DNA of 64,000 nucleotides from Candidatus Dadabacteria bacterium (GCA_963805855.1 CAWDVW010000005.1:384001-448000), one strand, 5' to 3'; counted from the stretch's first letter, positions 16,622 through 25,603 are shown. Notes: generated by a model not told the origin, from the letters alone. Made by a program: numbers and translations.

Positions 16622-17536
16622 ATGAAATTTGGAATCGTAATTCCGTTACACAGAGATGTCGATGCGCTTGTTAACCTTGAGCTGGCTGAGAACGCCGAAA
16701 TGCTTGGTTTTGACTCAATATGGATAAGCGATCATGTCGTTCTTCCTACAAAATACGAAGGACGATTTAGCAACGTCCTCTATGATCCCTTTGTTCTCCT
16801 CGCATCAATAGCGGCGAAGACCAAAAAGATTTCACTCGGAACCAGCATAATTATCGTTCCTTATAGAAACCCTATAGTGGTGGCAAAAATGATCTCTACG
16901 ATCGATTTGCTTTCGGAAGGAAGAATTGTTCTCGGCGTTGGTCCGGGTTGGATGGAAGAAGAATTCAATATACTGGGTATTCCATTTAATGAAAGGGGAC
17001 AACGAACCGATGAATACATAAACATCTTTAAAGAAGTTTGGGAAAAAGACGAGCCTCAATTCGAGGGAGAATTTTACAGCTTTTCCAAAATAAAGTTCTA
17101 TCCCAAACCTATTCAAAAGCCACATCCTCCCATCTGGATCGGAGGAATCAGTAAAAAGGCTATTGAACGGGCTGTCGATCAAGGAAATGGGTGGCATCCC
17201 GTATGGCTCAGTCCTGATCAGATGGAAAAGAAGATCGGTTATTTAAAAAGAATTGCTAAGGAGCAGGGAAGGAATTTAGACAATTTCGTTTTCTCTATTA
17301 GAAACAGGCTTAGAATCTTAGAAACTACCGAAGTGAAAAAACCTGATTTCAGTGAATCGAGGGGAAAGTATACCTTTTCATTTCACGGAACGACAGAAGA
17401 AATCATCCATAAGATACGGCAATTCGAATCTATAGGCGTTTCCCACATAATGTTCGATTTAGATGTAGAAAATAATAAGGAAATGTTTAATACGATTGAG
17501 CGATTTGCAAACGATATAATGCCTGTTTTTAAGTAA
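16622..17536 (+). CDS. LLM-class flavin/F420-dependent oxidoreductase
   Basis: GFDSIWISDH, YRNP, GRIVLGVGPGW..EEF, PHPPIWIGG. Confidence 0.9.
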   Translation: MKFGIVIPLHRDVDALVNLELAENAEMLGFDSIWISDHVVLPTKYEGRFSNVLYDPFVLLASIAAKTKKISLGTSIIIVPYRNPIVVAKMISTIDLLSEGRIVLGVGPGWMEEEFNILGIPFNERGQRTDEYINIFKEVWEKDEPQFEGEFYSFSKIKFYPKPIQKPHPPIWIGGISKKAIERAVDQGNGWHPVWLSPDQMEKKIGYLKRIAKEQGRNLDNFVFSIRNRLRILETTEVKKPDFSESRGKYTFSFHGTTEEIIHKIRQFESIGVSHIMFDLDVENNKEMFNTIERFANDIMPVFK

Positions 17537-17783
17537 TTTTCTCGCAAAGCCGTTGGTTTTCGGCAGTCGGAGAATCAATCCGGAATCCACTCCGATTGTC
17601 ATCCCCGAATGTTGCCCAATCAACACATTTGGGTACAGGCCTAATCGGAGATCGATAAAATAGGTAACTGCGAGTACTTCCACTCGCTCAGCACTGGTTT
17701 CGAAGCAATCTCCTCGCTTATTGTCATAGCAAGGCGTAAAGCCCTTTCGCGGATGTCGCTATTTGTTCATTCTATTTCTGAAA

Positions 17784-17816
17784 CTGTGATCCCTAGTAGT
17801 ATTGTTCTGAATCATG
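17784..17816. repeat. Left inverted repeat of AIPR-Fic island
   Basis: Reverse complement CATGATTCAGAACAATACTACTAGGGATCACAG matches 21808-21840 at 31/33. Confidence 0.8.
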
Positions 17817-17995
17817 CATCCTGATTTAAAGGGTCGCGTCCCCTTTGATTACTTTGATTATTATAAAACGCCACCTTCCAGTGCAATAAATAGATCCCGT
17901 TACCGTAAAACATTGGGGCAATCTTTTGTTCGGGCATGTTCTATGTTAGCATATAAGGGGTTATAAGAGGTGCTGACTAACTAATATTAACCAAG

Positions 17996-20135
17996 TTGGT
18001 TAATCCTTTAATGGTGAAATTCCAATCGATTAATAATAATCAAAAAGATTTCGAAGACGGTATCGAAAAAATATTACAATACGCTCAAGAAGTAGCAGAA
18101 AATATATCTTTGAGAAGAAGGATTCAAGAAGAAAAATCTATAGTTTTAAAGCACTTGACGAGAGTATGTGCAAATTGGGAAAAATTTATTGAAAGTGAAA
18201 TTACATTAGCAGCTAAGCTTGATACCACAAAAATAATCAAAGAAATGAACCTACCAAGGAATACCAGACTCAATTTACATTTAATTAGAGCTATTTTATA
18301 TTCAGATATTTTTAGGGATTTTCACGAGGTCGATAGAGCTAAAAACTTTTTTAATAAATTCATCATCGATAAATACAACCCCTATAAGAGAATTACAAAC
18401 AAACAAAAACAAGACATTAATTTGTTTATAAGCTCAGAAACTATTTATCACATTATTCAGAATTTTCAAAAAGAATGTTACGCCAGGGTTATAAGAAAAA
18501 ATATGGCTTAAGTCGCTTTACTGAACCGGGGCAGTTCTTATTGTCAAATAATTGCAAAAGATTTCAGGAGCTTATTTCGAGTTTCAAGTATGCTTCAGTA
18601 AACATGAAAAATATTTATAAGTAAGTCAATAAAATCAAGATGAATAATTTATTTGCTGATTTAAAAAGCCTGACCTTCCCTGGAAAGTATTTTGTTTCAG
18701 AAGATAAAAAGACCATACTTGGTGAAACAAGATTTAGAGACATATTGTTTTTAGATTATAGAGACACGGAAGCCGGAAGCAATCCAAGAGAATATGCAGG
18801 ACTAAAAAAGACAAATGAAGAAATATTAAAAAGCCTTCTTAGGGACTATAAAAATATGTTTCGCTTTCTCCATTCGGGAATAATTGCATCTTTAACTGGT
18901 CTAAAACTAATAAATGATTCACATACAATATGATAGTTGTTGTTTAACAAACGGGAATCAGACACGGTTCATTATCCTAATTCTCGCTTTGCTGAGGATG
19001 TACTCTATCGAGAATGACATTAGCAACATAAATGAAAAATCATTCAAAAGCTTAATAAAAGAGAAATTTAAGAATAAAAATAATATCTTAAACTTCTCAT
19101 CTTTCGTCAAATATACAAAAATTGCGGAGATACGCAGATTCCTATTAGGAAATGGAAAATATTTAATTTCTTTTAAAGATATGAATTTCGACGTATTCTT
19201 GAAATTCAAAAATCAGAATTCAAGTAAATGTCTTAGAAAGAATAATAGAGCCTATAGATGATTTAGATGAATATGATGCAGGCACATTAATTGCTCAAGC
19301 CAATAACAACACGCAAAACGTAAAAGTTGACGATATATTTGGTAGTCGCCATAAAAAGGAATTACCTAAATTCATTTTTGATAATTTTATTTCTCGTTAT
19401 GGTGACTCTGTAAAAATAGAATACCGATTAGGAGAAGTTATTCGAGAAAGGGTCCAAAGTTCATATCCTAACTTTACTAAGACCGGTTGTTGCTACGGGA
19501 ATATTAACTAAAGAAAAGGATGTATTTAGGTTATCTAATCAAAGAACCCCTATATATAATCTTTTTACAAAACTTTTGAGAAATTTAACAAAGGAGATGA
19601 AAAAGCCAAGAAAACAGTGGAATCGGTCTCGAAAATGATTCCGCTCCTTTATGACATAAGAGAAAATTTTATCATTCCTCAATTAAGACTACACAAGAGT
19701 ATATTTTATAGAGAATACCGAGAGAAAGCTATAAATAAAGAATTAGATACAACAACAATCCGCGATAGAATAAAATTCAAAGATGGGGAATTACTAGAGG
19801 ATTCAATAGACGCTTTAAAAAAAATCACAAATTTTAATATAGACCATATAATTCCTGTGGTTGTTTTTAGAATTAGAAAAATTATAAAATTGAATCTACT
19901 GGCGAAGTGGCAATTACAGTTTCAAACGGATAAAGAAAAGTTTTTCAAAACGATAATACAGGCGATATATAAAAGTTATATTGAACTTAAGTTGATTGGT
20001 ACTGCTGGTTCAATAACAGACGAAATTAGGAAGACAGCATTTTTTAAAAACGGTGAGGAAGGTTATGAAGCTTTAAAGAATTTGTTAAATTTCGAAGAAA
20101 CAAAATTTATAGAAGAAAATAAGTACATTGCATAA
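17996..20135 (+). pseudogene. AIPR-family (abortive infection, ParB-like) protein broken by several frameshifts
   Basis: Consecutive AT-rich fragments carry SNPREYAG..N..I.KSL..FRFLHSGI, LTNGNQT and IAQANNNTQNVKVDDI, matching AIPR motifs NVRxxLG/NNGI/NGGQT/NxQN. Confidence 0.6.
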
Positions 20136-20181
20136 ACAGGAAATCAATCAAAACAAGTCAGGCTCAAACATTTAGACAGAG

Positions 20182-20210
20182 AAACTCGGGGCCAGGCATG
20201 CAATTTGACA
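20182..20210 (+). repeat. 29-bp direct repeat, copy 1
   Basis: AAACTCGGGGCCAGGCATGCAATTTGACA; 28/29 identical to 21743-21771. Confidence 0.85.
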
Positions 20211-20522
20211 CATATAAGCTGTCTTCATTCTAGCCCCTTTGTTTCTTAATTTATCTTTGTAAAGCTCGTAATTAACTCGTTACAGGCACGAATTAATTAA
20301 TCAGACGTTAATAAGAATTAGTCAACAAAAGACCCCAAACTTTAAACTCTGTAATCCCGAAGGTCGTGGGTTCTCCAGTTCTATGCCGCTCGGTCGTGAT
20401 CCTGATTGGCGTTGGTTTTCCGGCTGCCAGCGCGCGCCACCATCCAGAATTGCGGAGATTGGATGGCATATTCACCGCATAACCTACGGAGAATGATCTA
20501 GCTTTTGCGGCGAATAACAGGC

Positions 20523-20551
20523 ATAATCTCCGCATGAGGTGCGGAGATTAT
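20523..20551. promoter_or_regulatory. Palindromic operator overlapping Fic start
   Basis: ATAATCTCCGCA-TGAGG-TGCGGAGATTAT perfect 12-bp inverted repeat; related half-sites at about 20451 and 20470-20494. Confidence 0.6.
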
Positions 20552-21663
20552 GCCAAAATATATCCATGAATTGGCGAACTGGCCGCAGTTTCGCTGGGAT
20601 CGACAAGGTCCTGGCGGAACCCCTGGCTGCCGTGCGCCACCGGCAGGGACGGCTAATCGGGCGAATGGAAGGGCTTGGCTTTGCCTTGCGCGGTGAAGCC
20701 TTGCTCCAGACCCTGACCGAGGACGTCCTCAAGTCCAGCGAGATCGAAGGCGAAATCCTCGACCGCGACCAGGTGCGCTCTTCGATTGCCCGGCGGCTTG
20801 GGGATTGATATCGGCGCGCTGACTCCCGCCGACCGCGATGTCGAAGGCGTCGTCGAGATGATGCTCGACGCGACGCAGAAATTTGATGAACCGTTGACGG
20901 ACGAGCGGCTGTTCGGCTGGCATGCGGCGCTGTTCCCGACCGGGCGCAGCGGCATGCAGCGGATCATCGTCGGCGACTGGCGCGATGACAAGAGCGGGCC
21001 GATGCAGGTGGTCTCAGGCGCCTACGGGCATGAACGTGTTCACTATGAAGCGCCGGCAGCCGCTCGCGTGTCCGTCAGAAATGAAAGCGTTCCTGACCTG
21101 GTTCAATGCGCGAGCAGAGACTCGATCCGGTGCTGAAGGCGGGAATTGCGCATCTGTGGTTTGTCACCATCCACCCGTTCGATGACGGCAACGGGCGCAT
21201 CGCGCGCGCGATCGCCGACATGCAGCTCGCGCGGTCGGAAGGGAGTCCGCAGCGCTTTTACAGCATGTCGGCGCAAATCCGGCAGGAGCGTGGGACGTAC
21301 TACAAGATCCTTGAGACGACGCAGAAAGGCGATCTCGACATCACGGCCTGGCTCGATTGGTTCCTTGCCTGCCTGGGTCGCGCGATCGACGGCGCAGAAA
21401 ACGCACTAGCCGGTGTGCTGGCGAAGGCGCGGTTCTGGAACCACTACAAGGACGAAGTTCTCAACGAGCGCCAGCGCGACATGCTGAACCGGCTTCTGGA
21501 CGGTTTCGAGGGAAAGCTGACGTCGTCGAAATGGGCGAAGATCGAGAAGTGTTCGCAGGATACCGCCTTGCGCGACATTACCGATCTGCTTGAACGCGGC
21601 ATCCTGACCAAGGATCCCGGCGGTGGTCGTAGCACCAGCTATTCTCTGGCAGAATGGAGTTGA
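20550..21663 (+). pseudogene. Fic family protein (DUF4172 N-terminus, Fic, C-terminal HTH), four frameshifts
   Basis: MPKYIHELANWPQFRWD, SSEIEGE, HPFDDGNGRIAR, DTALRDI, GGRSTSY; frame breaks near 20600, 20801, 21071, 21120; markedly GC-rich. Confidence 0.85.
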
Positions 21664-21742
21664 TCAGGAAGCGCAGTGCAGATTGCCATTGGGGTGGGGT
21701 GGCTCTAGGAATGAAGAGAGTCGATATGATCGATTTCGAAAA

Positions 21743-21771
21743 AAACTCGGGGCCAGGCATGCATTTTGACA
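21743..21771 (+). repeat. 29-bp direct repeat, copy 2
   Basis: AAACTCGGGGCCAGGCATGCATTTTGACA. Confidence 0.85.
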
Positions 21772-21807
21772 CTTGCTGACACGATGCAGGATACAGGATG
21801 CACGATT

Positions 21808-21840
21808 CATGATTCAGAACAATACAACCAGGGATCACAG
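21808..21840. repeat. Right inverted repeat of AIPR-Fic island
   Basis: CATGATTCAGAACAATACAACCAGGGATCACAG, preceded by GATNCAN heptamer repeats. Confidence 0.8.
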
Positions 21841-22044
21841 ATTGACAAATAAATGGGTACATCATTATTACGATAGAGACGAGTTTACCCCTATATCTAT
21901 TCTTCCCCGCTCTCTCTTAAACCCTCCTTGCTACTTCCCCATCAAGAACTTCCTCTTTCTTGTCCTTTTCTTGCTTACCGTCGAAGCTGCCTAATTCTTC
22001 TATAAATCACGAGATCGCCGCTGGGCCCCGCCCTTCGCGATTTT

Positions 22045-22365
22045 GGATGTTAGATAATTCGTCGACAAAATCCAAAGACTGATAAATTTCGCTATAATTT
22101 ACTATTCGTCATCCTCAAATGTTTTTATCGTGGATCCATTCTCTAATTTCTTTTTTCTTTGTCTTGATACAAAGAAACAAAAATCAAGGGCTGCAAAAAA
22201 TTAGGAATTATTAAATCAATTCCTTCAGCTAAAAATTTTTAATCCAACCACAGCCCCAAATCTTTTTTTAACGCTTCCGGAATTGATTTTGGCAATTTTT
22301 TGAATGCCCATTTAAAATCCAAAAAACTCTCCCCGAATTACTTGACATCTACTGCGGTGACAATC
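22045..22365. mobile_element. MITE-like composite repeat, copy B
   Basis: Colinear similarity with 11950-12540 including 41-bp and 42-bp identical blocks. Confidence 0.65.
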
Positions 22366-22526
22366 ACAGTGGATTCCCGATAACAGTCCTCTGGAATGAC
22401 CCCGGTGTAGAATTGCGGCTAGAAGTTTTGGTTCATTCACAGTTGGTCATTAAGGTAAAGATAAGTGGGGGACTAGAGTCCTCCGCTACAGAAGAATTCG
22501 CTGAAAAGTGCTTCTATTTCCTTCCC

Positions 22527-22955
22527 TCACTTCAACGGGTTTTTTGCAGTCCTTTCTTTCTCCACCTGTTCCCTCAGATGGTCATCAACGGCCTGCCAGT
22601 AACGCCACCAATACGAATTTTCTTCGTAATTCTTTTTCTGCAATTCAGCCCAATTTATGACCTGAAATACATCGCCCTGATAAAGCATCAGTTTCTTCGC
22701 GGCGTCTTTAGCCTGATCAATGTCAACCGGTAATTTGTTTAGTTCTTCATCAATGTAAGACTTCATAGTCTTAATGCTTTTCTCAATATCGGGAGCAACG
22801 TCTTTTATCTTTTCTCCTGAAATCCTTACTTCATCCGGAAAGTCTTCGAAGTGATTCTTCATTAAATCTACAAAATCCAAAACCCTCTCAAGGTTTTGCT
22901 TTGCCCTGATAGTCTCGGTAACTAAATCGGTAAGCTGCTTAGCAGTCAATGGCAT
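22527..22955 (-). CDS. Hypothetical helical protein
   Basis: ATG (MPLTAKQL) after AGGGAG RBS; distinctive SYWWRYW motif; family not recognised. Confidence 0.7.
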   Translation of the reverse strand: MPLTAKQLTDLVTETIRAKQNLERVLDFVDLMKNHFEDFPDEVRISGEKIKDVAPDIEKSIKTMKSYIDEELNKLPVDIDQAKDAAKKLMLYQGDVFQVINWAELQKKNYEENSYWWRYWQAVDDHLREQVEKERTAKNPLK

Positions 22956-23088
22956 ATGTCTACTCCCTATATTATTTTTTTCACACTCCTTTGATTTTTG
23001 AACTAAGTCGCATGTACATATTAACATATATTAATGCGTTAGTTACTACGGAATATTCAGGCAATTTCCCAATTCGAAAGAAAACCTA

Positions 23089-23117: not shown

Positions 23118-23320
23118 CCGCGTGAGGAATCCTGATTCATTAACCGATGGGGCAATTAGGGGGGTCAGGCTCAGCCCTGAGTCTGATTGTTAGTGGGCGA
23201 TCGAGAAAACAGTAGGAAGAAACTATTAACGCAAGGGAGTTGGTGCACTTAGACGGCCCCCCCCAACAGGGTAGGTACGCCCTAGGCTGCTCAACGCAAA
23301 ACTCTTATAAGGAGGATATC

Positions 23321-25603
23321 ATGAAAAGCACTCTATCAAAACTTACCATTTTTTTCTCTATTATCGTACTCTTAGGTTTGATTTGGCAATTTATTCCAAG
23401 CACCGATCACTCTTCGGATAAGAGGCTTTACCCAGTTATAGGTAATGCGAAAAAACTGAAGAATACTTATGAGACCTGGAAGGCAAGGGCTACGAAAAAC
23501 GGCGCAGAGAAGAAGATGTTGATTCAGCTTGGATATATGAAAGGTTTATCTTCTGATTTCACAGAGGCCCATGGTCGGGCTTCAATCGACCTTACGGACG
23601 GGACATTAGACGTCGAGGTCACTGGTCTAGACGCCGAAAAAGATTTCGACTTTTGGTTTGTCGATAATATTAGCGGACCTGGAAAAAGTGTTAAGCCGGA
23701 AGATGGCGATAAAATTGTTAATCTCGGTAAATTAAAAAACAACAACGGTCGTCTTGTACTGAATAAGAGATTGGCGACAGGACAAGTCAAGGACTTCAAG
23801 CTCGATCTTGCCGTTGTCGCCAGAAGTGGTGAGAACCCGGCCGATAGGGGTTTATTATTTGGATCGCCCAGCCTCTTTCAAAGGCTTTACTATAGTGAAT
23901 TACGGGGGGAATTTGGAAACCTTGGAGACAGACACACATACAAAAACACCGAAAACATGATGTTGACCACACCATTCAGCGTTATAATACCAACTCCTGC
24001 ATACGCTGATGACGGCGGGGTGGACGAATTAGTGGCTGAAGGTGAGGAACTCTTTTTTGAAGAAACATTTGACGGAAACGGCAGGACCTGCGGAACATGT
24101 CACCCAATGGAAAACAACCTAACTATTGACCCGGAGTTCATTGATACGCTGCCCCCCGACGATCCACTCTTCGTGGCTGAATTTAATAAAAAACTATCAA
24201 AGGATTTCGAGAGGCCGGATTTGATGCGGGAGTTCGGTCTCATCCGGGAAAATGTAGATGGTTTCGACGACTTGGCGAATAAATTTGTGATGCGCGGGGT
24301 TCCCCACACACTCGCGTTGCAAACATCTATCTTGCAGCCTATAATTGGTGCTGACCTTCCGCTTAATGAAGTCGGCCATGCCATAAAAGAGGGGATGGAG
24401 ATGACAGGATGGTCAGGTGACGGAGCACCTGGAGGTAGCACTTTAAGGGAGTTCGCTACAGGTGCTGTCACTCAGCACTTCACAAAAACCTTGACTCGTA
24501 AAGCCGGCAAAGACTTCCGCCTGCCGAATGATGATGAGCTCGACGCATTGGAGGCGTTCCAGCTTTCATTAGGGCGCCAAGCTGATCCAGTCTTGATGGC
24601 AGACAATAGTTTAGGTCTCATGCTAAAAAATGATCCTGCAGTGGATGATACCCACTTCGCTGGCTTCGATGTCATTAAAGGAAAGGCCGTTTTCATAAAC
24701 GGCTCGGGTTTGGACGAATTTTTTGCGCCAGCTTCTAAGCTTGGCAAGTGCATCACATGTCATTTCAACGCTGGTGCGACTTCCGGCCGCCACCTTCAGG
24801 TCCCCCCTCGCCCCGAGATAGGTATGAATCGAAACGTTGCTACAGGTGCAGAGTTTTTTCTTCTACCCGATGGTAGCGATAGGCATGTTGCCCTAAATAT
24901 CCCGGTTGATGGAGGCTTTGGAAGGTTTAACAGAAGTGTTAATGTTTTAGGCCCTACTCTATCCGTTAATGCCTCCTGCCCACCACCCCCAACTGGCGAT
25001 GGCGGTACCTCTCCCTCACCTACGTGCTGTACCGCTCCCTCACCTACGTGCGGAATCGGAGATGGCAGGTTTAATTCTCCCCCTCTCATTGAGGCAGCAG
25101 ACACCCCTCCCTTCTTCCACAACAATGCATTCAGCACGATCGAAGAGGCTGTTGCGTTCTATAACAGCCCTCTATTTAATCAGGGACGTGGGGTAAATGA
25201 GATACATCTCTTACCTAATCAAATCACTCAAATCGGCACCCTCCTTCGGGTATTAAACGCACTCGAGAACATTCGGTCAGCGATTCAACTCAGTGACACC
25301 GCCTCATCGGCAAAAAACTTTGGCAGGGCAAAGAAATCCCTCGGAGTTGCCCTGGCTGAACTTGATGACGCAATACAGGTTCTTCATGATGGAGGAGATC
25401 ATGATCTACCTGGTGGTCTACCTGGTGGCCTATATCCCCTTGCTGTCGCTGACTTGATGGATGCTGAGGGATCCATAGAGAACGCAATTAAAACTAGTGA
25501 TATGGAGAACAGAAATGAGCTGATAGATATGGCTATCGAAGATGCGATATCGGCTAGAGAGGATATGTGTTTTCTCGGCTCAGATGACGTTCTTTGTCCT
25601 TGA
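23321..25603 (+). CDS. Large di-haem cytochrome c peroxidase/MauG-superfamily protein
   Basis: AGGAGG RBS before MKSTLSK; CGTCH and CITCH haem motifs; RFNSPPL..AADTPPFFHNN. Confidence 0.8.
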   Translation: MKSTLSKLTIFFSIIVLLGLIWQFIPSTDHSSDKRLYPVIGNAKKLKNTYETWKARATKNGAEKKMLIQLGYMKGLSSDFTEAHGRASIDLTDGTLDVEVTGLDAEKDFDFWFVDNISGPGKSVKPEDGDKIVNLGKLKNNNGRLVLNKRLATGQVKDFKLDLAVVARSGENPADRGLLFGSPSLFQRLYYSELRGEFGNLGDRHTYKNTENMMLTTPFSVIIPTPAYADDGGVDELVAEGEELFFEETFDGNGRTCGTCHPMENNLTIDPEFIDTLPPDDPLFVAEFNKKLSKDFERPDLMREFGLIRENVDGFDDLANKFVMRGVPHTLALQTSILQPIIGADLPLNEVGHAIKEGMEMTGWSGDGAPGGSTLREFATGAVTQHFTKTLTRKAGKDFRLPNDDELDALEAFQLSLGRQADPVLMADNSLGLMLKNDPAVDDTHFAGFDVIKGKAVFINGSGLDEFFAPASKLGKCITCHFNAGATSGRHLQVPPRPEIGMNRNVATGAEFFLLPDGSDRHVALNIPVDGGFGRFNRSVNVLGPTLSVNASCPPPPTGDGGTSPSPTCCTAPSPTCGIGDGRFNSPPLIEAADTPPFFHNNAFSTIEEAVAFYNSPLFNQGRGVNEIHLLPNQITQIGTLLRVLNALENIRSAIQLSDTASSAKNFGRAKKSLGVALAELDDAIQVLHDGGDHDLPGGLPGGLYPLAVADLMDAEGSIENAIKTSDMENRNELIDMAIEDAISAREDMCFLGSDDVLCP

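Follow-up and report, generated by a model that had tools for sequence, protein, structure and literature searches.

What holds two unrelated genes together between a pair of matching inverted repeats is the question raised by one locus in a 64,000-nt stretch of DNA from Candidatus Dadabacteria bacterium (GCA_963805855.1, CAWDVW010000005.1:384001-448000; hereafter the window). Between positions 17784 and 21840, 33-bp inverted repeats enclose about 4.06 kb that carries an AT-rich gene of the AIPR family and a GC-rich Fic gene, each followed by a copy of a 29-bp direct repeat. A first-pass annotation, which had located all of these features correctly, took the segment for a non-autonomous, cassette-like platform mobilised in trans. 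Part of that proposal stands, in that the direct repeat is a transposon end and is linked to cargo genes of this kind, but mobility of the 4.06 kb as one unit was not borne out. The explanation that we favour, and consider reasonably probable, is that the spacer between two convergent core genes has turned into a hot spot of gene gain and loss, in which TIRtron ends, other modular repeats and foreign defence genes have come together and turnover takes place at the repeats. We compared the genome under study (G000, 3.11 Mb) with that of a sister species (G001), with G002 and with further relatives, the completeness of the first three being 94-96%.

In G000, 4,990 nt separate the two core genes that bound the island. 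Its principal parts are the following, H denoting the direct repeat and T a short module shared by the two arms.

16622-17536, plus strand: luciferase-like monooxygenase (LLM) gene, 304 aa, the core gene at the left boundary (Pfam PF00296, E 2.3e-59).
17773-17823, minus strand: left arm, made of a T module (17784-17809) and the remnant of a heptamer array (17808-17823), a truncated heptamer+T copy that points leftward.
18640-20135, plus strand: AT-rich gene of the AIPR family (abortive-infection type), interrupted by about four frame breaks, near 18925, 19205, 19455 and 19595.
20182-20260, plus strand: H unit 1, consisting of the 30-nt terminal repeat (20182-20211) and the start of a conserved body.
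20550-21663, plus strand: SoFic-type Fic gene (DUF4172 + Fic), GC 0.57-0.65, in at least four frame pieces.
21743-21772, plus strand: second copy of H, 30 nt, the head of a long H unit.
21773-21851, plus strand: heptamer array (21783-21817) and T module (21815-21840), holding the right arm (21801-21851).
21852-22041, plus strand: tail of the long H unit, with a pyrimidine-rich body, the remnant of an antisense small open reading frame (ORF) and a hairpin of the repetitive extragenic palindrome (REP) type.
22527-23027, minus strand: conserved gene, 166 aa, the core gene at the right boundary (homologue in 21 of 21 genomes searched).

The two copies of H (20182-20211 and 21743-21772) match at 29 of 30 positions. 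As the motif GGGGCCAGGCATGCAWWTTGACA with up to two mismatches, H occurs 37 times in G001, five times in G000, twice each in G002 and G006 and once each in G010 and G012; it was found in none of the other 35 of the 41 genomes, and a reversed control gave no match anywhere. At two of the 14 Y1 loci examined, those of G006 and G010, which represent two other genera, inverted H copies stand no more than about 20 nt from either end of a gene that encodes a protein of 314-321 aa with Y1_Tnp and Bac_DnaA_C domains. In G006, H(+) at 911 and H(-) at 1890 bracket a gene at 931-1872, and in G010, H(+) at 1416 and H(-) at 2398 bracket a gene at 1432-2394. The bracketed protein matches PF01797 (E 9.7e-16) and PF08299 (E 1.1e-07), and HIH and RYLHLNP motifs are present in its translation. 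In G001 (contig C84), an orthologue with 69% identity to this transposase ends at 908, and an inverted H copy starts at 914, after a gap of 6 nt. As published, the TIRtron, or TIRYT, is a Y1 gene with terminal inverted repeats headed GGGGWSAS (PMC3733652), and TnpAREP subclass 2.1.2 combines a DnaA_C-like tail with the GGGGWSAS head (PMC6006769). The copies of H in G006, G010 and G012 carry this head, reading GGGGTCAG, and those in G000, G001 and G002 read GGGGCCAG or GGTGCCAG, one position off it. Judged by these sequence features, H is the GGGGWSAS-type terminal inverted repeat of a TIRtron, the element formed with a TIRYT Y1/HUH gene that has a DnaA_C tail. The first-pass annotation had suspected that short GGGGYCA-type ends at this locus belong to a mobile family, and the bracketed genes of G006 and G010 and the H-ended orthologue of G001 agree with it.

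An enzyme acting in trans, as also proposed there, fits the distribution of the transposase gene. The cognate gene is not present in G000, where the best match to the H-bracketed transposase is a paralogue with 41% identity (39% for the paralogue in G002). G000 has lost the H-cognate enzyme and keeps five to seven orphan copies of the repeat; G001 still has the enzyme, and in this genus the copy number of H tracks its presence. G001 also contains inverted H pairs about 220 nt apart that form miniature elements of about 245 bp, four of them with H at both ends. Empty sites for these four, sought in G000, were not found, and a search in G001 and G002 for an empty site of the H unit at G000:C4:78279 gave nothing clean, the orthologous region being itself filled with repeats. 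H has no hairpin of its own, and its units fold weakly (-5 to -9 kcal/mol). The tail of the long unit in the window (21852-22041) is homologous to C7:1823-1961, C7:723833-723939, C4:78165-78270 and C6:101722-101831. On the opposite strand, H-unit tails contain a small ORF of about 50 aa (M(C/R)DPVLIAAILEELGYFDEKKEKDKK...) with no Pfam match; three copies in G000 are intact (C2:245657-245806, C2:250676-250840 and C7:723779-723940), a remnant lies at about 21900-22000 (minus strand) in the window, and several copies carry an inserted REP-type hairpin at the identical spot, between LIAAIL and EELGYFD.

Which genes accompany H was examined by a scan of ORFs no shorter than 60 aa lying up to 1 kb from the repeat at 21 of about 30 H loci (99 ORFs, counted without overlapping duplicates and without the four loci of G006, G010 and G012). 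Toxin-antitoxin families were the commonest, with HicA, HicB-like and UPF0150 found four times each, DUF5615 three times, and DUF433 and DUF2283 twice each, followed by PemK, Gp49, Abi_alpha, Fic and others, once each. At 20 arbitrary G001 loci (60 ORFs), which served as a control, none of these families appeared among the 25 most frequent of 75. The placement of H is non-random and preferentially beside toxin-antitoxin and defence genes, as expected if the repeats go with cargo, and loci of G000 rich in H units give the same picture: C7:1-2.3 kb has Gp49/HTH and PIN-type pairs, C2:245-251 kb has two ParE genes and a Gp49/HTH pair, and C7:722-726 kb has a BrnT gene and a true AIPR gene. Differences between strains also start at the repeats. 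A 1.2-kb PIN-toxin cassette in G000:C7 is absent from G001:C124, the difference starting inside H, and a second hot spot (G000:C5 versus G001) breaks at a GGGGTC head. Repeats build up without cargo as well, as in the 1.8-kb gene-free insertion at G001:C68:18716-20505, a mosaic of H in both orientations, unit tails, REP-type hairpins and heptamers that stands opposite an empty site of about 18 nt at G000:C7:438260-438279. Movement of cassettes, another element of the first-pass proposal, did not emerge: when 23 H-bearing loci and the G000 genome were compared all against all, no cassette turned up at two different loci, and no circle or excision joint was seen in metagenome contigs. As a separate observation, the 2,744-nt contig G001:C51 has a first 140 nt that recur at its end, which makes it circular or a tandem copy, and it holds three H copies, a HicA/HicB pair, and an AlbA_2-like ORF and a folD fragment, both cut exactly at an H head.

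Comparison of the locus itself was possible in 20 relatives, those covered by the searches for both the LLM gene and the 166-aa gene. Eight of them have the LLM orthologue and the 166-aa homologue in convergent orientation, with only 15-232 nt between the two. The two genes are 1.9 kb apart in G011 and on different contigs in G001 and G003, and in the remaining nine relatives the best LLM match lies elsewhere and is likely a paralogue (identity at most 51%). The G010 spacer is a plain hairpin. These empty sites span the whole spacer from the LLM gene to the 166-aa gene, not the part from arm to arm. Synteny between G000 and G001 ends at the stop codon of the LLM gene, beyond which G001 has an inverted H copy, then a type IIG restriction-modification gene and MauJ-like and DUF5677 genes, up to where the contig ends. 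A second G001 contig carries an unknown ORF, an H unit, H with an intact Fic gene, H with heptamers and a diverged T, a HicB/HicA-like pair and then the 166-aa gene, which is 88-89% identical between G000 and the G001 and G002 copies. The Fic cassette (20181-21827) is 96.5% identical between G000 and G001, compared with 85-92% for the flanking core DNA, and its leader (20255-20345) is identical at 91 of 91 positions. Variation at this locus starts at repeat boundaries, as the first-pass annotation had anticipated: homology of the Fic cassette between G000 and G001 begins at 20181, and X1-X3 metagenome contigs join other DNA to 20182.

Metagenome contigs match the window exactly over 17634-17851, 20239-20532, 21631-21854 and 21734-21939. 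The layout of the island is therefore real, since independent contigs match these junctions, the corresponding locus of G001 carries the Fic cassette and the right side recurs in G002; doubt attaches to the frame breaks alone. Contig cover over 17922-19300 is nearly nil. Several joints in these contigs were set aside. The joint 20260->21940 (X2, X3) is best explained by an ordinary full-length H unit from elsewhere and not by excision; 21799->22153, 21986->22461, 22180->22262 and 22200->22262 fall in high-copy repeats, have short sides and were disregarded; and 17524->20273 (one X3 contig), whose sides are separated by unknown letters, was left uninterpreted.

The 33-nt arms (17784-17816 and 21808-21840) match at 31 of 33 positions and terminate in CTGTG...CACAG; none of 100 dinucleotide-preserving shuffles of the window gave two matches to them, and their complementarity reaches 51 nt at 86% (17773-17823 with 21801-21851). 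Each arm is a composite of heptamers and the T module, a 26-nt core of which BLAST located two copies in G000, three in G001, five in G002 and none in 18 further relatives. All 10 copies in G000-G002 come after GATGCAG-like heptamers, and eight of the 10 then lead, as judged by eye, into the TTCACAAATA-like tail of a larger unit. In the right arm, heptamers and T are inserted between the TTTGACA that ends H and a second ATTGACA and are thus nested in the H unit, an arrangement found again at G001:C51 and, beside the 166-aa gene, at G002:C186. At this locus the right arm is also present in G002, with an identical core, and in G001, where it is diverged and accompanied by other cargo. For both arms, homology to other copies runs outward past the arm ends, and the DNA adjoining the left arm has its homologue in the tail belonging to a T-module copy of G001:C31. 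No target-site duplication is present at 17784/21840 (CTGAAA / ATTGAC) or at 17773/21851 (CATTC / AATGG), and X1 and X3 contigs with the left arm cease to match the window at 17851. Since there is no target duplication and these left-arm contigs stop at 17851, the arms are parts of two opposed heptamer+T units and not demonstrated ends of a 4.06-kb element. The contrary claim of the first-pass annotation also fails to find an arm-to-arm empty site, what is empty in relatives being the whole gap that in G000 measures 4,990 nt.

Heptamers of this type are not confined to the island. A pattern scan of G000 found 101 GATGCAG-like arrays of 3-11 units, among them many inverted pairs with spacers of 20-30 nt, often just after genes or apparent tRNA 3' ends (for example C2:185195-185273, C7:318351-318421 and 21783-21817 in the window); the arrays are a genome-wide hairpin repeat composed of heptamers. 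A second T-bounded segment, G000:C5:334684-340230, contains an unknown 568-aa ORF together with genes for one beta-helix and one cohesin-domain protein. The whole 8-kb interval around it gives way in G001 to 1.3 kb of GC-rich DNA, with the break at a GGGGTC-headed repeat.

The two cargo genes differ strongly in composition, with a GC content of 0.27-0.33 over 17850-20100 and of 0.57-0.65 over 20400-21600, against 0.35-0.46 in the flanks and 0.40-0.45 in the contigs. With four frame breaks each, both are predicted to be inactive as assembled. In tblastn, the AIPR-family gene aligns through frames 1, 2, 3, 1 and 3 to residues 1-496 of P0001, a 505-aa protein that bears PF10592 as precomputed annotation; its last fragment is 56% identical to P0001, and a single fragment alone scores 21.8 bits against PF10592, for which the cut-off is 25. 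DNA of the AIPR-family cassette was not found in 20 relatives. G000 has a clear AIPR gene elsewhere (C7:725040-725957; PF10592 E 5.6e-39; 305 aa, possibly shortened), which lies at the end of contig C7 next to H-unit tails and a gene for a BrnT toxin, and in tblastn its protein had no similarity to the island. The Fic gene retains the HPFDDGNGR motif, and HPFDDGNGRIAR is present in both the G000 and G001 copies. Compared with the intact 369-aa copy of G001, which matches PADLOC SoFic (E 1.1e-42), the window gene has four +1 insertions (20601, 20797, 21070 and 21108) and 53 substitutions over 1,650 aligned columns. The four extra bases are missing in X1-X4 contigs wherever the positions are covered; these contigs represent the G001-like allele and so are no test of the sequence of G000 itself. 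In near-identical X2 and X4 contigs, the intervals with three of the AIPR breaks contain single-base gaps; either intact alleles circulate or the assembly is imperfect at the cargo genes.

How the island arose can be pictured from these comparisons. The ancestral state would have been a short spacer with a terminator hairpin between the convergent LLM and 166-aa core genes. In this genus the spacer would have gathered horizontally acquired defence and toxin-antitoxin genes along with several small selfish repeat families, the repeats presumably accumulating where insertions are tolerated. Cargo may then have been gained, lost and shuffled at the repeats, via homologous recombination between units or transposase-made breaks, and the 4.06-kb segment would not move as a single inverted-repeat-bounded transposon. 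The identity of the repeat, its link to a transposase, its enrichment beside toxin-antitoxin and defence genes, the differences that start at its head and the empty site in relatives are shown by the data. Several points weigh against this picture. No recombination product was directly observed, and the enrichment is only qualitative, given a control limited to the 25 most frequent of 75 families and ORF sets of unequal size and length. The Fic cassette, being closer between G000 and G001 than its flanks, suggests an exchange more recent than vertical descent. The T module has only two copies in G000, both exactly flanking the cargo, and a diverged inverted T-like pair (46 nt, 89%) bounds another accessory segment of 5.4 kb with the same tails-outward geometry; the geometry of the T pairs at these two loci is more regular than a passive pile-up would predict.

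These last points lend some appeal to arms that function as ends, the 4.06 kb being a non-autonomous composite transposon or a segment that a recombinase can invert, and the CTGTG...CACAG ends would suit either. We nevertheless regard this as very unlikely, given the lack of a target duplication, the outward homology past both arms, a right arm that is resident in G002 and diverged in G001 next to different cargo, left-arm contigs (X1, X3) that stop at 17851, and no matching transposase or invertase identified. A more active role for H merits closer attention. GGGG-headed TIRYT ends could be recombination sites at which an enzyme in trans captures and moves single genes, producing integron-like arrays. 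H copies in the same orientation 0.4-1.6 kb apart do enclose single genes or toxin-antitoxin pairs, in the G000 island, at C7:3 and C7:816, and in G001 on C140 (960, 1332, 2889) and C51 (364, 980, 1906). Homology that starts exactly at the H head, enrichment of H beside toxin-antitoxin and defence genes, a cognate enzyme in the species with many copies and a Fic cassette more alike between species than its flanks all point the same way. IS200/IS605-type Y1 enzymes use direct-orientation ends on one strand, which would suit such a role. Yet shared cargo is always at the same locus among the 23 H loci and G000, Fic included, and the host fragments cut at H (folD and the AlbA_2-like ORF) look as they would after insertion or adjacent deletion. 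The weak folding of H units without a hairpin of their own, the cargo-free repeat clusters and the lack of a circle joint in metagenome contigs also speak against capture, and we consider it unlikely. We give rather little credence to its fullest form, in which TIRYT enzymes and GGGG-headed ends would constitute a gene-cassette system of their own and the island a decayed array left after loss of the enzyme.

An integron remnant, that is, an integrase-less cluster with H units as attC sites, comes to mind from the one-orientation repeat arrays after short ORFs, many of them toxin-antitoxin genes, and from the ability of most type-A units to pair AAAC..GGGG with CCCC..GTTT. It is barely credible, however: an integron integrase was not found in G000, G001 or G002 (best TIGR02249 score 88 bits, cut-off 265), the unit centre of about 45 nt is unpaired, agreement with the R''/R' consensus goes no further than AAC/GTT, and the bracketed genes show H to be a terminal repeat that belongs to a Y1 transposase gene. 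There remains the suspicion that a chimeric or poorly polished metagenome-derived stretch has produced both the juxtaposition and the frame breaks. Eight breaks in two genes amid intact neighbouring core genes, the nature of all four Fic breaks as extra bases absent from G001 and X1-X4 contigs, and the X2/X4 single-base gaps in intervals with three AIPR breaks would be accounted for in this way. Independent contigs that match the four junctions exactly, the G001 Fic cassette at the same locus and the shared right side of G002 argue the other way, and an artefact of this extent appears highly improbable to us. The hot spot in a convergent-gene spacer, with turnover at the repeats, remains the explanation that we favour.

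Besides the parts listed above, the interval between the core genes contains other features, most of them repeats.

17537-17783, no strand: left spacer of dispersed repeats, including an outer inverted-repeat arm (17578-17601).
17828-17846, minus strand: REP-type hairpin repeat of the AAAGGGGACGCGACCCTTT family, holding the GTCCCC of 17838.
17996-18511, plus strand: ORF of 171 aa upstream of the AIPR-family gene, of no recognised family.
20316-20336, minus strand: inverted GGGGTC-headed 21-mer (GGGGTC...TTGACT), a degenerate partner of H unit 1, holding the GACCCC of 20331.
22035-22365, no strand: dispersed repeat of about 330 bp resembling a miniature inverted-repeat transposable element, with dozens of copies in G000.
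22358-22381, no strand: outer inverted-repeat arm, a copy of the GGATTCCCGATAAC-type repeat and the partner in pair I2.

The first-pass annotation had noted an inward-facing G(T/A)CCCC motif before each cargo gene. Both are present, at 17838 and 20331, one belonging to a REP-type hairpin and the other to the inverted GGGGTC 21-mer. The AAAGGGGACGCGACCCTTT-family hairpin has 19 copies in G000 (at most three mismatches) against none for the reversed control. The GTCCCC at 17838 is part of a copy of the repeat AAAGGGGACGC.ACCCTTT, inverted pairs of which bracket Y1 genes at C8:3400-3822 and C7:293439-293732 in G000; another repeat, GGGGTCAGGCTTTG..., brackets the Y1 gene at C7:80090-80734 in the same genome. 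In bracketing Y1 genes, these GGGG-headed repeats of G000 act as H does, and the GGGGYCA-type ends of the first-pass annotation aptly characterise a class that is already known. The 21-mer at 20316-20336 has one full copy in G000 and is 100% conserved in the Fic cassette of G001, and a 17-nt core of it recurs at a few other loci. The outer pair I2 (17578-17601 versus 22358-22381) pairs at 88% over 24 nt, and the GGATTCCCGATAAC-type family to which it belongs has 71 copies in the G000 genome against none for the control. Copies of the 330-bp repeat in G000 are 68-92% identical; it is missing at the equivalent site in G002, which is without 22020-22354, and summed contig depth over it is 55-524 across four metagenome runs.

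The claim that no transposase or recombinase lies inside the island was confirmed for the eight ORFs or frame pieces scanned there, seven by Pfam and five by PADLOC, none of which matched such a family. PADLOC gave zero matches on the gene fragments of the island, the 171-aa ORF (17996-18511) had no match in Pfam or PADLOC, and a search of 17400-22600 against Rfam with E up to 1 returned only one chance-level match, to a fly long non-coding RNA family. Directly past the 166-aa gene lies a 787-aa ORF (23240-25603) without a Pfam or PADLOC match, which is absent there in G001 and G002. Elsewhere in the window, a short frame at 59616-59810 matches the first 65 positions of a tyrosine-recombinase (integron-integrase) profile with 49.6 bits and is probably an N-terminal fragment of an integrase, 38 kb from the island.

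To our knowledge, TIRtrons have been described but are almost unstudied, and nobody has demonstrated the action of their enzymes. Were a cassette system to operate here, single defence or toxin-antitoxin genes would be cut and pasted at repeat heads into integron-like arrays, located between convergent genes, without an integron integrase. The coincidence of cargo proximity, differences that start at the repeat head and a copy number linked to the enzyme provides a testable lead on the turnover of defence genes, which the repeats may shape either passively, as substrates of recombination, or actively. Should the repeats prove to be passive substrates alone, this would be a hot spot of the usual kind, its cargo in decay, and mainly a warning against taking each inverted-repeat pair for transposon ends.

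Among known systems, defence islands resemble this locus in bringing AIPR-family, SoFic-type, type IIG restriction-modification and HicAB genes to one spot between the same core genes; here, however, there is no integrase or tRNA anchor, and the spacer of a convergent gene pair is filled with transposase-end repeats. Integron arrays and clusters of attC sites lacking integron-integrases (CALINs) share the one-orientation repeat after each short cassette, toxin-antitoxin cargo and content that varies between strains, and differ in that no IntI was found here, the units fold weakly with an open centre and the repeat is that of a transposase element. Bacterial interspersed mosaic elements (BIMEs) consist of repeats in mosaic clusters, and the mosaic clusters between convergent genes seen here are like those of REP/BIME sequences. 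REP/BIME and REPIN-RAYT systems likewise have short extragenic repeats tied to a domesticated Y1 transposase and mobile miniature doublets, whereas H is non-palindromic and lacks a GTAG foot, its doublet measures about 245 bp and its clusters enclose protein-coding cargo. The closest counterparts are the TIRtrons/TIRYT (TIR-associated tyrosine transposases) of Di Nocera, De Gregorio and Rocco (2013), approximately TnpAREP subclass 2.1.2 of Quentin et al. (2018), which, in the portions of PMC3733652 and PMC6006769 that we draw on, have the same Y1/HUH gene with a DnaA_C tail, the same bracketing repeats headed GGGGWSAS, the same dispersal of repeats as singles, dimers and groups, and several paralogous genes per genome, each with its own repeat. 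The H family departs from them in its head GGGGCCAG, with C in place of the consensus W, and in single-ended copies with a long conserved body, some of which contain nested heptamer+T units; its proximity to toxin-antitoxin and defence genes and the strain differences that start at its head are features outside those portions of the published descriptions.

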